In this document: one piece after another, positions 13,146 through 17,774 of the stretch
Numbering within the stretch: position 1 is the first letter of the stretch
Layout: each line of letters opens with the position of its first letter
Assembly (NCBI GenBank): GCA_963705305.1
Contig: OY970067.1
Span: 3,776,001 to 3,840,000 of the forward strand
Reading direction: 5' to 3'
DNA: 64,000 bases
From: an uncultured Methylomirabilota bacterium
GTDB taxonomy: Bacteria > Methylomirabilota > Methylomirabilia > Methylomirabilales > 2-02-FULL-66-22
Position numbers and translations under genes: made by a program
The notes under the pieces: model-generated
What the model saw: the letters and a program-made list of their open reading frames with translations, nothing else
Database searches by the model: none
What the model was told of the DNA's origin: nothing

Positions 13146-14665
13146 CCCTAATCTCCGGCTAAGAAGTTGAGGGGGATCGCGAATCACGCAGCGGCCCGCA
13201 GTGCGCGCGGCCCGCGGGGTTGGCATCGGCCTTGCTTGGTTTCACCCAGTGGGTGCAAACACCACAAGGAGGAGAGCGATGCCCGACACCTCGCCCCGGT
13301 TGCCGTTCGAGATCGATGACGCGATCGACCCCACGCTGGTCACGGGCCGGGCCGGGGTCCCGCTCGTGATCGAGCTGTTCCGCCAGCTCGGGGTGGCCCA
13401 GGCCGTCGACACCCACGTTGCGGTCAAGCAGCGGCAGCGCGGATTACCCCCCTCGCAGCTCGTGGAGAGTCTCGTCGCGTTGTGGACGAGCGGCGGGGAC
13501 CGCTGCCAGGACCTCACGACGCTCCGGGAGGATCAGGCCCTGGCCACGCTGCTCGGCTACCCCCTGCCGGCCGCGACCACGGTCCGGGACTTCCTCGAGG
13601 CCTTCCACGTGGAGGACGGGCCGCTCTGGGTGGCCGGGCCCGCGGCCACGGTCCCCCTGGAGTCCGCCCCCTTGGCGGGCCTCGGACAGGCGAACCGGAC
13701 GCTGGTCGCGGGCGTCCAGCGCGGGGCCCGGGCGGCGACGGCCACCCTGGATGTGGACGCGACGCTCGTCGAGAGCCACAAGGACGCGGCGACCGTGGCC
13801 TACGACGGGACCCGGGGCTACCAGCCCGTCGTGGTCCTCTGGGCCGAGCACGATGTCATCGTGCACGACCAGTTCCGCGATGGCCAGGTGCCCGCCGGGT
13901 GCGGCAACGTGCGCGTCCTCGAACAGGCGGTGGCCAACTTGCCCCAGGGCGTGGACCGCATCTCCCTGCGGGCCGACAGCGCCCTCTACGAGACGGAGGT
14001 CCTCCGCTGGTGCGAGGAGAAGAAAATCGCCTACGCGATTAGCGCCGATATGTCCGCGCAGCTCCAGGCCGAGATCCGGCGCCTCCCCGCGGCCGCCTGG
14101 CAGCTCGAGCGGGAGGAGCCCGAGGCGATCCGGGCCTGGGCCGAAGTCCCCTACGTCCCCGAGGATGGCGATCACCGGAAGGCGCGGCCGTGCGTTCGCC
14201 GCTACCTCGCGGTGCGTATCCAGCGACGCCAGGGGAGCCTCTTCGCCGACGGGAGTAGCGTGCAGTACTTCGCCGTGGTCACCAATCGGCCGGAGGATGG
14301 GCTCACGATCCTCCGGTGGCACCGGGAGAAAGCAGGGACCATCGAGCACACCCATCACGTCCTCAAGACCGAGCTGGCGGCCGCCGCGCTGCCCAGTGGG
14401 AAGTTCGGGGCGAACGCCGCCTGGTTCCGGCTGAACGTGCTCACCTACAACCTGCTCACCGCGCTCAAGCGGTTGACCTTACCCGGAGATCTCCGGACCG
14501 CCCGGCCGAAGCGTCTCCGGTTCCTGCTGTTCAACACCGTCGGGAAGGTCGTCGCGCATGCCCGACGGACGCTCTTGCGGCTCTCGGGCGCCCTGCAGCA
14601 CGCCTTGCTCGTCCGGGCGCGGCGCAAGATCGCCCGGCTGGCCACCGCTTAGCCGGAGATTAGGG
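13146..14665 (+). mobile_element. IS1380-family insertion sequence, complete
   Basis: Perfect 18-bp TIRs CCCTAATCTCCGGCTAAG (13146-13163, 14648-14665); TAGCGC direct repeats at 13140-13145 and 14666-14671. Confidence 0.92.
13279..14652 (+). CDS. IS1380-family DDE transposase
   Basis: TLDVDAT, GYQP, LRADSA, IEHTHHVLK, FGANAAW. Confidence 0.92.
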   Translation: MPDTSPRLPFEIDDAIDPTLVTGRAGVPLVIELFRQLGVAQAVDTHVAVKQRQRGLPPSQLVESLVALWTSGGDRCQDLTTLREDQALATLLGYPLPAATTVRDFLEAFHVEDGPLWVAGPAATVPLESAPLAGLGQANRTLVAGVQRGARAATATLDVDATLVESHKDAATVAYDGTRGYQPVVVLWAEHDVIVHDQFRDGQVPAGCGNVRVLEQAVANLPQGVDRISLRADSALYETEVLRWCEEKKIAYAISADMSAQLQAEIRRLPAAAWQLEREEPEAIRAWAEVPYVPEDGDHRKARPCVRRYLAVRIQRRQGSLFADGSSVQYFAVVTNRPEDGLTILRWHREKAGTIEHTHHVLKTELAAAALPSGKFGANAAWFRLNVLTYNLLTALKRLTLPGDLRTARPKRLRFLLFNTVGKVVAHARRTLLRLSGALQHALLVRARRKIARLATA

Positions 14666-14746
14666 TAGCGCCCTGTGGTAGCTCAGCAAACTTGTCCGCC
14701 TCTAACAGATCAGGGATTCTGTCCGCTCTCGTAGAGAGGAGGACAG

Positions 14747-14971
14747 ATGACCCTGACTCCCGAGGAAGCCCGACGCGTGCACGTTCTCACCCTCCTGGAG
14801 GGCAAGCGTATCACTCCCGCGCAGGCGGCCGAGGCGGTGGGACTCACCGCCCGGCAGGTCCGGCGCTTACGGGCCCGGCTCCGGCGGATGGGCCCGGGAG
14901 GGCTGGTCCATGGCAATCGGCGCCGCCTCACGCCGCCTCAGCGCCCCCGATATTGCCCGGATTCCCCTTGA
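14747..14971 (+). pseudogene. Truncated transposase N-terminal HTH (ISNCY/IS481-like)
   Basis: AAEAVGLTARQVRRLRAR...GLVHGNR with no DDE domain. Confidence 0.7.
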
Positions 14972-15124
14972 CACCCCTGGCTCGCCAATGGTAGCGTCCC
15001 GGCCGTCGCGTGTTCGTCGCGCGCCTTAAGGGCTTGTCGAGGAAAAACCTAAGGCGGCGAGCAATGACACGGGCTCGGAGGGTCGCGCGAAACCGCGCTG
15101 AGGCCAAATTCTACGGAGGCTGCC

Positions 15125-15307
15125 ATGCCCGACATCGTTATTAAGCCTGAGGAAATCGTAGTCGACAAGAACGGTAAAGTGACAATCAAGAACGAAGCAT
15201 TCAATAAGGCTGTTGAAAAAAAGCTGGGCAAGAAACGATCGGATGTGGAAGGACAAGGTGCGCAGGATTTCTTTGATCATGGGTGCATCAATAGATGCAG
15301 CCGCTGA
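15125..15307 (+). CDS. Putative RiPP precursor peptide (60 aa, C-terminal FFDHGCINRCSR)
   Basis: GGAGG RBS; charged leader-like N-terminus; Cys/aromatic C-terminus; immediately upstream of a radical SAM gene. Confidence 0.7.
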   Translation: MPDIVIKPEEIVVDKNGKVTIKNEAFNKAVEKKLGKKRSDVEGQGAQDFFDHGCINRCSR

Positions 15308-15430
15308 TCCTGACGACAAGATAAACCGGCGGGCAATCTAAAGCACGATCCGGTCCGGACGAGGAAGCGTCCGAAGAGAGTAAATGTGTGGAACGCTTCT
15401 CGTCCGAATCCGGGCGGCCCATAGCAGCAT

Positions 15431-16426
15431 ATGGCCTCATTAAGCATATCGCAGCTTGCGAATCTCCTTTCTGTTCGTGCATGGCATCTCATAATAATCC
15501 CCACTGAAAAATGTAATTTTAAATGCACGTATTGTTACGAAACGTCCAATACGAGCATGATGAAACAAGAAATTGTCGAGGCGATTAAGACGCTCATCAG
15601 CCGACGACTGCCCGAACTTGACACGCTATATGTCGGATGGTTCGGAGGGGAGCCGTTATTGGCAAGAAATGTCATCAGGGATATTTCTAAGGACATCAAG
15701 GGCCTGGCGCGGTCTTACTCAAGCCTGAAGTATAGGGCCGGAATGGCAACCAACGCCTATTTTTTGACGCCGTCCCTTTTATCCGAGCTGGCTGAACTCG
15801 GCATATCTGACTACCAGATAACGCTTGACGGTCCCCCGGAGATTCACGACAAGCGTCGCGCAACTGCCAACGGCAGGGGGACGTTTGATCGCATATGGAA
15901 GAACCTGATAGCCATACGGGACAGCTCTGAGCAGGTACGTGTCCTGCTGCGTATCCATTTCGATCCTTCCGGGATCTCCCATTTGGGTGTTCTCGTCGAG
16001 GATGTGCGCCGGGAGTTTCTGCCGGACAGGAGGTTCACGGTTCATTTCCAAGCGATAAGACGCCTTGGTGGAAAGGACGATTGCCAGATTCGGATATTTT
16101 CGGCTTCGGAGGAACGGGACCAAATCCGAATGCTTCGACAGGCGTTGTATAAGGATCGGAGGTATCAAGAGACCAGGGAGCCGCCCTACGTGTGCTATGC
16201 CTCTCGACCCAACTCCCTGGTAATCTATCCAAATGGTGATATCGGCAAATGTACAGTGGCTCTGTACGATCCGATTAATAGGATCGGCTCGATAAATGCG
16301 GACGGAACTGTAAACATTGATCCGGAACTTCTGAGATTATGGTCACGCGGGTTTATGGCAAAGCCCGACCTCTCGACCCTGTGTTGCCCTCTGAAGAACT
16401 TTCCGAAGGCTCCGAGTCGTCTATAA
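15431..16426 (+). CDS. Radical SAM enzyme with C-terminal twitch/SPASM-like Cys region, putative peptide maturase
   Basis: CNFKCTYC (CxxxCxxC), WFGGEPLL, QITLDG, CYA...NGDIGKC...CC. Confidence 0.9.
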   Translation: MASLSISQLANLLSVRAWHLIIIPTEKCNFKCTYCYETSNTSMMKQEIVEAIKTLISRRLPELDTLYVGWFGGEPLLARNVIRDISKDIKGLARSYSSLKYRAGMATNAYFLTPSLLSELAELGISDYQITLDGPPEIHDKRRATANGRGTFDRIWKNLIAIRDSSEQVRVLLRIHFDPSGISHLGVLVEDVRREFLPDRRFTVHFQAIRRLGGKDDCQIRIFSASEERDQIRMLRQALYKDRRYQETREPPYVCYASRPNSLVIYPNGDIGKCTVALYDPINRIGSINADGTVNIDPELLRLWSRGFMAKPDLSTLCCPLKNFPKAPSRL

Positions 16427-16625
16427 ATAAGAAGAAGGTCCCGGCGTTATCAATCGAAAAATTGGCTGCACGGTGACGCGGGAGTGGCGGTATTTGTTCC
16501 TATATTTGTGTCTAGATATCCTGCTTCCATTGAAGTTGACCCCACCCTGAGGTCATGGGAGGATCCCTGGCTCGGAGGTGGCCATGGGCGACTACACAGG
16601 CAATGATCGGCAGGAGGACACGCGC

Positions 16626-17774
16626 ATGCAGTCGCCCCGCCTTGATCGTGCGGCGGTGCTCGATCTCCTTCAGCAGTTGATCCGCATCCCCTCCGTAAAT
16701 CCCTCACTCGTTCCGGAGGAGGCATCCGGGGAGGCCGCCATCGCCGCCTTCGCCCGCGACTGGCTGGCCGAGCATGGCCTCCGGGCCTGGCTGGAAGAGG
16801 CGGCCCCCGGCCGGCCGAACGCCGTGGCCGAAGTGGGCGGCGGCGAAGGTCCGACCCTGGTTTTCTGCGCCCACTTGGATACAGTCGGAACGGCCGGGAT
16901 GACCATTTCCGCGTTCGAGCCCCGCCTGGAAAGGGGCCGCGTCTACGGCCGGGGAAGCTACGACATGAAGGGGAGCGTCGCCGCTGTGATGGCCGCGGCG
17001 GTCGCCCTGGCCGGCGAGGGGCTCGGGGGTCGAGTCCTGTTGGCGCTGGTGGCGGATGAGGAGTACGCCAGTGTGGGGGCCGCCGACTTCGTGCGGCGCC
17101 ACCGGGCAGACGCCTGCGTCCTTACCGAGCCCAGCGAAAGGAGGCTCATTCTCGGCCATAAGGGATTCGTATGGGCGGAAGTACTGACAACCGGCCGGGC
17201 CGCCCACGGCAGCCGCTGGGACCTCGGGGTGAGCGCCATCGGCAAGATGGGACGCATCATCGCCGCACTCGAGCTGTTCGACCGGCAGGCGCTCCGGGAA
17301 CGGGTGCACCCCCTGATGGGCCCGGCTTCCCTGCACTGCGCCCTCGTCCAGGGCGGTGCCGGCCTCTCGACCTACGCCCCCGAGTGCCGCCTTCAGGTGG
17401 AGCGGCGGACGCTGCCCGGCGAGACCCCCGAGCAGGTCCGCCAAGAACTGGAAGCGGTCGTCCGGCAGGCCGGCGAGGAGGCGGAGGTTCGGTGCTTCTT
17501 CGACCGGATGCCCCTTCTGTGCGATCGGGAGGCGCCGGTGGTCCATTGCGTCCGGGCGGCGGCGGCGGCCGTGACCGGGCAGCCGCCTGTCGAGGCCGGC
17601 GTTCCGTACTGGACGGATGCCGCTATCTTTGCCGCGGCCGGGATCCCCACCGTGGACTATGGCCCCGCCGGGGCCGGCGCACACGAGCCAGTGGAGTGGG
17701 TGGACCTGGACTCTGTCCTCACCTGCGCGGAGGTCCTCGTCGAAGCAGCCCGCCGGTTCTGCCGGCCGGCCTGA
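16626..17774 (+). CDS. ArgE/DapE-family (M20) deacylase
   Basis: AHLDTV, GRGSYDMKG, ADEE, TEP, GAHEPVE. Confidence 0.92.
   Translation: MQSPRLDRAAVLDLLQQLIRIPSVNPSLVPEEASGEAAIAAFARDWLAEHGLRAWLEEAAPGRPNAVAEVGGGEGPTLVFCAHLDTVGTAGMTISAFEPRLERGRVYGRGSYDMKGSVAAVMAAAVALAGEGLGGRVLLALVADEEYASVGAADFVRRHRADACVLTEPSERRLILGHKGFVWAEVLTTGRAAHGSRWDLGVSAIGKMGRIIAALELFDRQALRERVHPLMGPASLHCALVQGGAGLSTYAPECRLQVERRTLPGETPEQVRQELEAVVRQAGEEAEVRCFFDRMPLLCDREAPVVHCVRAAAAAVTGQPPVEAGVPYWTDAAIFAAAGIPTVDYGPAGAGAHEPVEWVDLDSVLTCAEVLVEAARRFCRPA

Follow-up and report, generated by a model that had tools for sequence, protein, structure and literature searches.

A short peptide gene and a compact radical SAM enzyme as a supported precursor-maturase pair in a low-GC island of an uncultured Methylomirabilota bacterium

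A stretch of 64,000 nucleotides from an uncultured Methylomirabilota bacterium (GenBank assembly GCA_963705305.1, contig OY970067.1, positions 3,776,001 to 3,840,000; hereafter the window) contains a 60-amino-acid open reading frame (ORF) followed by a gene for a radical S-adenosylmethionine (SAM) enzyme. The question raised by this locus is whether the two form the substrate and the maturase of a peptide that is synthesized ribosomally and then modified post-translationally (RiPP) and, if so, how the peptide is recognised and which bond is made in it. An original prediction, based on the letters of the DNA, had described the small ORF, preceded by a GGAGG ribosome-binding site and lying 123 bp ahead of a 331-amino-acid radical SAM ORF, and had read the two as precursor and maturase. 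All these elements are present at the positions given below, so that the observation is confirmed, and the interpretation is supported: sequence comparisons support the view that the 60-amino-acid ORF and the 331-amino-acid enzyme are a genuine RiPP precursor-maturase pair of a large, apparently unstudied family. The features on which the argument turns are these:

15115 to 15119, forward strand: GGAGG ribosome-binding site, read from the sequence, 5 nt ahead of the precursor ATG.
15125 to 15307, forward strand: precursor peptide ORF, 60 amino acids, assigned by leader profile match and family membership.
15155 to 15187, forward strand: codons of the leader hairpin (residues 11-21), a predicted enzyme-binding element whose motif is co-conserved beside homologous enzymes.
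15431 to 16426, forward strand: compact radical SAM maturase, 331 amino acids, assigned by PF04055, NCBIfam, AlphaFold2 (AF2) and Foldseek.

The leader of the precursor consists of a beta-hairpin from I11 to I21 (IVVDKNGKVTI) and a helix-like stretch, and the core ends in QDFFDHGCINRCSR, with D51-x-x-C54 and C58. An independent leader profile, built from 133 other peptides and run on 112,618 six-frame stretches of the 5.6-Mb genome, found the window ORF with an E-value of 6e-8, the runner-up standing at 0.25; since it is the sole genome match of a profile made from other peptides, the small ORF is no chance ORF. The peptides closest to it are P0260 (67% identity over 49 aligned residues) and P0171 (54% over 56), which appear to sit with the enzyme homologs P0005/P0279 and P0011. 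No curated family in NCBIfam or Pfam matched the precursor above its cut-off. The core had been proposed to start after a 'GA' motif, a boundary that did not hold up, as this site is kept in neither P0260 nor P0171; for the same reason the cleavage point is uncertain.

The reading as a pair is carried by a leader that is conserved together with the enzyme. Small ORFs beside homologous enzymes of ~320-370 amino acids share a hairpin of the form [ILV]x[ILV](D/N)xxGx[ILV]x[ILV], exemplified by IVVDKNGKVTI in the window, IEINEDGELVV in Nostoc, IEIDDNGKITI in Bacillus, ISLDESGKVVI in Sinorhizobium and LHLTNDGKVVI at a Truepera locus (L011). The search for co-conserved small ORFs with a VDxxGxVxI leader that had been suggested thus finds the motif beside homologous enzymes. 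In all five plasmid records with a homolog that were examined, a hairpin-leader small ORF adjoins the enzyme gene. In Nostoc punctiforme pNPUN02, two precursors lie upstream of the enzyme, which is followed by NHLP-type secretion and C39 peptidase-ABC export genes; the Bacillus mycoides plasmid has one peptide downstream of the enzyme and a flavoprotein upstream; two hairpin-leader peptides precede the enzyme on the plasmid of a Streptomyces sp. and one on that of Streptomyces canus; and the Sinorhizobium meliloti plasmid holds one upstream hairpin-leader ORF that is unannotated. A wider set comprised 35 related loci with enzymes of at least 34% identity (32 from metagenomes and three from genomes; L012, a duplicate of L011, was dropped); a scan of genome contigs with the single protein had yielded 4 loci. 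Ten of them match the independent leader profile at E<1e-3. In 16 further loci (L010, L019-L021, L023-L026, L028, L030, L032, L033, L035, L039, L040 and L043) a small ORF with a Cys core was recognised by eye beside the enzyme, its hairpin diverged or its leader different, and one locus (L014) represents a form in which the hairpin is fused to the enzyme.

The extent of the peptide family emerges from a second profile (A2), made of 15 hairpin-leader peptides and searched against 1.84 billion representatives: there were 183 matches at E<=1e-3, and 133 of the best 150 are peptides of at most 160 amino acids. The rest of the best 150 are giant repeat proteins with many matches each. In the giant proteins P0126, P0127, P0128, P0131 and P0134 (855-6288 amino acids, with 3 to 21 matches each), a short hairpin of the leader type seems to serve as the repeat unit of large, probably surface, proteins.

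Some members of the family show arrangements of their own. At the Bacillus mycoides locus (L093; 4282-4857, 6012-6224) the genes of the flavoprotein (PF02441) and the enzyme diverge, and the last residues of the precursor are ...NNVC. In L020 (269-790, reverse strand), L030 (203-712, reverse strand) and L075 (246-683, forward strand), a twin-arginine-like signal (SRRxLLEKAALAVGAA...) stands before the hairpin and the core is rich in NxxC; the sequences hint that the modified peptides of these three loci are exported via the twin-arginine translocation (Tat) pathway. In a gammaproteobacterial metagenome-assembled genome (L010:3730-6800), at least six small ORFs in tandem flank a 404-amino-acid homolog; these ORFs have a different leader (FD-x-HG-x-FE) and very Cys-rich cores.

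With regard to the enzyme, membership of the radical SAM superfamily is evident from the CxxxCxxC motif, from PF04055 (Radical_SAM; 66 bits against a cut-off of 29.5) and from the core fold, all of which are present. The motif expected near residue 28 is CNFKCTYC, that is, C28, C32 and C35. Four C-terminal Cys had also been noted and are there (C255, C274, C318 and C319), but only three of them belong to the family, as the Cys invariant across 32 aligned homologs are C28, C32, C35, C255, C274 and C319, and not C318. The resulting C-terminal pattern is C255-x13-G-x4-C274, then a single C319. A SPASM domain follows the pattern C-x9-15-G-x4-C, then C-x2-C-x5-C-x3-C, then C, and holds two auxiliary clusters. 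This seven-Cys motif was not found, the 32 homologs keeping only C255-x13-G-x4-C274 and C319, and a Pfam scan of the enzyme returned Radical_SAM and Fer4_12 only, with the SPASM model absent. Twitch enzymes have a C-terminal domain cut down to the first Cys pair, on a beta-hairpin, with one auxiliary cluster. Judged from these patterns, the C-terminal domain would be twitch-like, with one auxiliary cluster on three protein Cys rather than a full SPASM domain; the predicted C-terminal strands (262-265 and 270-272) are compatible with a twitch pattern, and SkfB, BtrN and MoaA are found among the structural or sequence matches.

The compactness of the enzyme has a counterpart in its family assignments. 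Its best NCBIfam match is TIGR04463 (158.3 bits, E 2.6e-46), other peptide-maturase models scoring lower, and membership of that family was rejected against its curated cut-off of 525 bits. With the precursor likewise unclaimed, no curated family covers either gene, in agreement with the earlier remark that the pair was not recognisable as a named class. The alignment joins enzyme residues 19-305 to positions 83-371 of the 438 in TIGR04463, so that the enzyme is without the N-terminal part, which holds the RiPP precursor recognition element (RRE), and without the last SPASM part. That there is no room for an N-terminal RRE had been stated before and is borne out both by this alignment, where residue 19 already falls on position 83, and by the AF2 model (predicted local distance difference test, pLDDT, 86.7), in which a single short helix lies ahead of the first core strand; an RRE, a PqqD-like domain of ~90 residues, is neither fused to the enzyme nor encoded elsewhere in the low-GC island that carries the two genes. 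In Foldseek, CteB comes out on top (5why, E 1.6e-13, TMq 0.70), followed by anSME (ranks 3-9) and ChlB, with EpeE (from rank 19, TMq 0.46-0.49), SkfB, MoaA and SuiB lower; all of these are radical SAM proteins. Homologs number 1975 proteins at E<=1e-3. The best 120 of them have 44-78% identity (the enzyme's own fragment P0002 aside) and come from Bacillus, Brevibacillus, Neobacillus, Nostoc and many other cyanobacteria, and the full-length ones are all of 318-417 amino acids. Their names are generic ('radical SAM protein' in the Protein Atlas), with an AmcB-named cluster at Atlas rank 24. A reading as a defence system or viperin was rejected: PADLOC gave a weak pVip match to the enzyme core only (37 bits, residues 25-122) and no match to the precursor peptide.

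As to recognition, a complex of the enzyme (alignment A1) and the peptide (A2) with SAM and two 4Fe-4S clusters was predicted in three runs. It scored 0.86 (runs 0.83-0.86), against 0.02 for the best control; a mark at the 0.86 level is met by 116 of 157 solved complexes and by 2 of 215 mismatched pairs, counts that hold roughly only, because the custom alignments and the riding ligands are unlike those of the calibration. At least 55% of the contacts agree among the runs, and the partner pLDDT is at least 62. In the pairs of lowest error, residues 11-19 of the peptide meet 55-59, 260-263 and 293-302 of the enzyme, and the confident contacts set peptide 11-21 against enzyme 293-302, 260-263, 55-62 and 6-15, residues 11-13 and 15-21 of the peptide lying in the interface, which also takes in residues 53 and 58 of the peptide and 129, 276 and 319 of the enzyme. 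The model supports direct, RRE-free binding of the leader hairpin to the C-terminal domain and two core helices. The enzyme possesses a C-terminal hairpin of its own (residues 283-304, IGSINADGTVNIDPELL) that resembles the leader motif, and the seed leader profile gives weak matches at the equivalent hairpin of the enzymes P0001, P0011, L010, L024 and L026; the leader is predicted to pack on this leader-like segment.

The hairpin is also found on the enzyme side. An N-terminal extension of ~30 residues with a leader-type hairpin is present in 39 of the 116 listed homologs with a readable N-terminus (a regular expression matched 40, of which the doubtful P0008 was left out; P0014 and P0115 are included). 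In P0014 the fused hairpin reads ITIDKNGKVLIKN, with AF2 strands at 18-20 and 26-28 and a pLDDT of 85 for residues 21-30. The sole fused-type locus read, from a metagenome (L014:846-3595), is without a hairpin peptide and encodes a precursor with a Nif11 leader that ends in GG-RAKPSSYLDNCNCD; its core is YLDNCNC, and five relatives keep YLD(N/D)C-x-C. Going by this one locus, the enzyme may itself provide the hairpin, while an export leader is all that the substrate keeps. With the hairpin on either partner and a Nif11 export leader on the L014 substrate, recognition and export signals would be separable modules.

The chemistry has to be approached through the cores. A Cys after the hairpin is present in 130 of the 133 family peptides, and 117 have at least two, the spacing of consecutive core Cys being mostly 1 or 3-5 residues. 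At position -3 of the Cys, Asn accounts for 47% and Asp for 11% of the Cys positions in the 133 peptides (58% together); position -2 varies (C, I, G, N, L, A), whereas 32% have Gly at position -1. Within the last 25 residues, (N/D)xxC occurs 160 times, against 35.8 (standard deviation 5.3) in composition-preserving shuffles, and 105 of 133 peptides bear it, whereas shuffles average 32.6 such peptides and none of 1000 exceeds 47. With its core, FFDHGCINRCSR, the window peptide falls in a subgroup that has (F/L)(F/L)D-x-x-C and then N-x-x-C (for example FFDWGCTNIGC, FLDWKCTNLKC and FLDYKCNSGC), and its first Cys fits the -3 rule (D-H-G-C). Aromatic core residues are restricted to this subgroup, and many cores have none, such as that of Nostoc, DNGNCNCNVKQR. 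Phe and His had been named as candidates for modification; conservation across the family falls on (N/D)xxC instead, which makes a thioether likelier than a cyclophane. By analogy, the most likely chemistry is probably a Cys-Asp/Asn thioether of the kind made by NxxcB and PapB, as argued from the Asn/Asp rule at -3, the three-Cys auxiliary site, CteB as nearest structure and the precedent of NxxcB. The link in the window peptide may be a small thioether ring between Asp51 and Cys54, with the second Cys in another ring or acting as a ligand; a link at the alpha-carbon is indistinguishable by sequence from one at the beta-carbon. For ranthipeptides and sactipeptides, classes that the product defines, the (N/D)xxC enrichment and CteB as nearest structure give indirect support. 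In 31 of the 133 peptides a Cys is the very last residue, and further tailoring of such C-terminal Cys may take place.

The closest precedents share parts of this system and differ in others. NxxcB, from the ranthipeptide system of Streptococcus orisratti, forms an Asn C-beta-to-Cys thioether in NxxC and tolerates an Asp acceptor (PMC9389541); an auxiliary cluster has been suggested to activate the Cys (PMC9389541, PMC8326336), and the enzyme has been assigned to the SPASM type, with two such clusters (PMC11851443). The likeness to NxxcA/NxxcB lies in the Asn or Asp three residues ahead of Cys, as in 105 of the 133 family peptides (Asn 47% and Asp 11% at -3; in the window DHGC fits and INRC is off register), and, by analogy, in a radical SAM enzyme whose auxiliary cluster is thought to hold the Cys thiolate. 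The differences are the two auxiliary clusters of NxxcB, against three conserved C-terminal Cys in the window family, its location in streptococcal shp/rgg quorum-sensing operons and its apparently unrelated leaders, the two being compared by description only. PapB (freyrasin) joins Cys to Asp by C-beta thioethers (PMC9413430, PMC8326336), and QmpB joins Asn C-alpha to Cys (PMC11851443). The enzyme scores 87 bits with the NCBIfam PapB model (cut-off 340) and 53 with the SCIFF model (cut-off 425), which sets it apart from both families. The PapB motif reportedly places the Cys ahead of the Asp.

CteB (SCIFF/thermocellin, 5WHY/5WGG) is the best structural match and also the best sequence match in the Protein Data Bank (profile E 2.6e-22 over the core), but it carries an N-terminal RRE as well as a complete SPASM domain, in solved chains of 418-453 residues, whereas the 331-amino-acid window enzyme has neither. 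CrpC, the enzyme of TIGR04463, is a thioether-forming radical SAM-SPASM protein that acts on C-terminal Cys repeats with C-x-x-Q/D in Cys-rich archaeal proteins (PMC13692751). It is likened to the window enzyme by the best NCBIfam match, and is distinguished by the score (158 bits against 525), by the unaligned profile positions 1-82 (RRE) and 372-438, and by its substrates, which are large proteins with repeated motifs. YydG/EpeE (8AI1 and other entries) is likewise a compact RiPP enzyme of the radical SAM kind, at ~320 amino acids (solved chains 316-323), with one extra cluster (PMC13012085); it differs by a weaker structural match, by its epimerisation chemistry and other substrates, and by its absence from the best 25 NCBIfam matches of the window enzyme. 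ChlB/ChlA (9GM3/9GMC) offers a 375-amino-acid enzyme solved with the precursor leader region, and matches the core in structure and sequence, but ChlB is described as making cyclophanes and no Cys-based link. The Nostoc precursors bear the public-record label of type A2 lanthipeptide, a class with a LanM-type synthetase and lanthionine cores of Ser/Thr and Cys. The label was rejected, as no lanthipeptide synthetase is annotated in the Nostoc locus; family peptides show weak matches, below the cut-offs, to lantibiotic or bacteriocin models over the double-glycine part of the leader. No paper or named family for this enzyme group was found; subscription journals and the supplements of large surveys were outside the scope of the search and may list the family unnamed. 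The compact enzyme family and the hairpin leader are, then, probably the undescribed parts, with recognition probably RRE-free, of what is overall a radical SAM Cys-based RiPP system.

Taken together, the explanation that we favour, with slightly more confidence than doubt, is a minimal, horizontally acquired RiPP cassette in which the hairpin docks on a twitch-like enzyme that forms a Cys-Asp thioether. The 60-amino-acid product would be the substrate, its N-terminal part forming the beta-hairpin I11-I21 and then a helix. The hairpin would dock on the C-terminal twitch-like domain (strand 293-296, helix 298-306 and residues 260-263) and on helices 6-15 and 55-62, standing in for the RRE domain on which most radical SAM enzymes of RiPP pathways rely, and docking would bring the C-terminal core into the active site. 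There, C28, C32 and C35 would hold the SAM cluster, and C255, C274 and C319 a single auxiliary cluster whose free iron site could take the thiolate of a core Cys. The 5'-deoxyadenosyl radical would take a hydrogen from the residue at -3 (Asp51 for Cys54), and the Cys-Asp thioether ring would close with the loss of 2 Da, much as NxxcB acts on Asn-x-x-Cys and PapB on Cys/Asp. Of this scheme, the gene anatomy, membership at the level of the superfamily, the co-conservation of leader and enzyme and the enrichment of (N/D)xxC are shown; the docking site has the support of the model, and the three-Cys cluster with its substrate ligand, the thioether and the place of the bond are inferred.

The surroundings of the two genes are those of a mobile segment, and comprise the following features:

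13146 to 14665, forward strand: intact IS1380 insertion sequence (NF033539, 267.8 bits; transposase 13201-14652), a neighbour outside the cassette.
14747 to 14971, forward strand: truncated ISNCY-like transposase, an N-terminal helix-turn-helix fragment of 74 amino acids, at the left edge of the island.
14936 to 16516, no strand: single-copy low-GC island of ~1.58 kb with the precursor and maturase genes only, from the GC profile and blastn.
15343 to 15418, forward strand: predicted long, imperfect stem-loop within the 123 bp that separate the precursor gene from the enzyme gene.

Both genes had been described as AT-richer than their flanks, and GC is indeed 0.46-0.56 over 15100-16450 against 0.66-0.77 on either side. 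The transposase debris that had been reported beside them is real in the case of the ISNCY-like fragment, in which NF033594 aligns residues 16-60 to profile positions 5-49 of 368 and HTH_23/HTH_29 match too; IS1380, in contrast, is intact, with perfect 18-nt inverted repeats at 13146-13163 and 14648-14665. The genome has 25 full-length copies of IS1380 at >=98% identity, 20 of them identical (the window copy plus 24 other places), which points to a recent transposition burst. Similarity of the ISNCY-like fragment to another genomic copy (95.9%) stops at ~14935 and native high-GC DNA restarts near 16517, followed by an M20 ArgE/DapE-type gene, so that the unique island measures ~1.58 kb with two genes only; it contains no further ORF. 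The 64 bp at its right edge (16517-16580, overlapping the start of the M20 gene) recur at two other genomic places with 89% and 84% identity. Blastn found no second genomic copy of the island, the enzyme is absent from the 20 same-genus and 20 same-order genomes searched, and it has no paralogue in its own genome, where no other radical SAM gene matches better than E 6.8e-16. From the GC profile, the single copy and the lack of a match in the 40 relatives' genomes, the cassette is taken, as part of the favoured explanation, to have been acquired horizontally.

Scanning 14900-16700 for terminators gave a single candidate within the enzyme gene, a number that does not exceed that from shuffles; Rfam had no match on 14600-16700; and among the sequencing runs no RNA run was listed, and one DNA run contained 0.40 of the sampled words. 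The spacer fold (15300-15435) has a minimum free energy of -51.4 kcal/mol and a z of -2.68, 2 of 200 shuffles folding equally well, and no T-run follows it; the stem-loop might serve transcript processing or partial termination.

Loci elsewhere have neighbours that are, by their sequences, typical for exported peptides: C39-ABC in Nostoc and L024, HlyD/MacB/FtsX/OEP in L025 and L026, a subtilase in L017 and MFS in L011. At four loci (L009:199-3889, L016:11-1219, L021:2-1584 and L086:43-1698) a CHAT (caspase-like) protease lies directly upstream of a hairpin-leader precursor, with the enzyme after it; three of these precursors end in ...CPC, the L009 core having an internal ...ICPDLIC..., and the loci may be a subfamily with its own protease. 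For the window, the absence of a dedicated exporter or protease next to the pair had been seen correctly, the island carrying only two genes. The M20 deacylase had been considered as a possible participant, which was rejected: it lies in native high-GC DNA outside the island, and a Pfam scan found no M20 gene among 37 neighbour ORFs of 16 related loci. Annotated export genes are likewise missing from the plasmid loci of Streptomyces canus and the Streptomyces sp., which have transposases nearby. These two-gene cassettes are the reason why a minimal pair may be a normal mobile unit; the pair may travel in this form, or the window copy may be a stranded fragment.

A number of points weigh against the favoured explanation. 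On the side of co-conservation, the 16 loci assigned by eye carry no statistical score, and 8 of the 35 have no candidate peptide (L018, L031, L034, L036, L037, L041, L042 and L044), three being cut off upstream. On the side of the enzyme, the score falls far below the cut-off of every named maturase family, the profile search extended over the core only and gave no alignment of the C-terminal domain to CteB or anSME, and the view of C255, C274 and C319 as one cluster draws on the C-x13-G-x4-C pattern and on what is described for SPASM and twitch domains. The score of the complex expresses the confidence of the model itself, obtained with custom alignments and ligands that set it apart from its calibration. 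As regards the bond, 28 of the 133 family peptides have no (N/D)xxC in their last 25 residues, the second window Cys (I-N-R-C) is off register, since its Asn is at -2 and not at -3, and it is motif statistics and analogy that argue for the thioether and its position. Finally, a promoter scan of 14900-16700 turned up no sigma-70-like site, the island encodes neither an exporter nor a leader protease, and the genome, 98.9% complete, yielded no Peptidase_C39 domain.

The last of these points lead to a possible but doubtful alternative, namely that the cassette is an orphan fragment of a larger cluster, stranded by the activity of insertion sequences, its genes intact but, in this host, either silent or yielding no mature exported product. 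A two-gene island wedged between a truncated ISNCY fragment and native high-GC DNA, with a 25-copy IS1380 alongside, would suit such a history, as would the missing promoter-like site and the fact that C39-ABC, HlyD/MacB, subtilase or CHAT neighbours occur at related loci and none here, in a genome without C39. Yet both ORFs are full length, every invariant family residue is kept and the ribosome-binding site is strong, and the two-gene cassettes of Streptomyces canus and the Streptomyces sp. are also without annotated export genes. This alternative concerns the fate of the product in the host and not the identity of the genes, and is compatible with the favoured explanation. That the small ORF is not a substrate at all, but a chance ORF or a regulatory leader, is scarcely credible: its shortness and the lack of a curated family above cut-off would allow it, against which stand the sole genome match of the independent leader profile, the 67% identity to P0260, the strong ribosome-binding site, the co-conservation of peptide and enzyme across phyla and a predicted complex that passed its controls.

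The remaining alternatives accept the pair and dispute the bond. It is unlikely, though a serious contender, that the enzyme performs some other chemistry, such as an alpha-carbon sactionine link (QmpB-like), epimerisation (YydG/EpeE), Cys oxidation (anSME) or a reaction at a C-terminal Cys. Both anSME and EpeE are among the structural matches, QmpB provides an Asn C-alpha-Cys link (PMC11851443), 31 of the 133 peptides end exactly in Cys, and a PF02441 flavoprotein adjoins the Bacillus mycoides pair. The window enzyme is compact like EpeE, which is said to be RRE-free. An Asn or Asp at exactly -3 of the Cys (58%), however, is easier to square with a ring of fixed size than with epimerisation or Cys oxidation, the thioether synthase CteB leads the structural matches, and the YydG/EpeE model is missing from the best 25 NCBIfam matches. 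Far less probable is an aromatic cyclophane or other C-C crosslink through the Phe and His of the core. The window peptide does have F49, F50 and H52, close relatives show F/L-F/L-D-(W/Y/H) ahead of the first Cys, ChlB, described as a cyclophane synthase, is among the structural matches, and a cluster named AmcB appears at Atlas rank 24; but such aromatics are confined to one subfamily, many cores, like that of Nostoc, are free of them, and it is Cys with Asn or Asp at -3 that is conserved over the 133 peptides.

If the favoured reading of a hairpin-guided thioether cassette is right, it would add a sizeable family, its precursors forming well over a hundred clusters at 50% identity and its homologs spanning Bacillus, cyanobacteria, actinomycetes, proteobacteria and Deinococcota. 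The large surveys made of radical SAM RiPPs take an RRE domain or a neighbouring ABC transporter as their starting point (PMC10288494), and a compact RRE-free family can slip through such filters for that reason. The recognition rule would be a simple one, an 11-residue hairpin binding the catalytic protein itself, in a two-gene unit that is often found on plasmids and beside insertion sequences. A bolder extension, which we regard as conceivable though rather improbable as a whole, would make this an undescribed and widespread RiPP class: a portable hairpin would replace the RRE and switch on a three-Cys twitch enzyme, which would close small (N/D)xxC thioether rings, the Cys of the substrate serving as fourth ligand of the cluster, and the hairpin could reside on either partner, as a 'leader in cis' in the fused enzymes (39 of 116 listed homologs), with a Nif11 export leader on the substrate (YLDNCNC). 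The enzyme-fused hairpins would offer a natural test of activation by leader binding, and a short transferable tag combined with a 330-amino-acid enzyme that makes thioether rings would, if the reading is true, be useful for peptide engineering.

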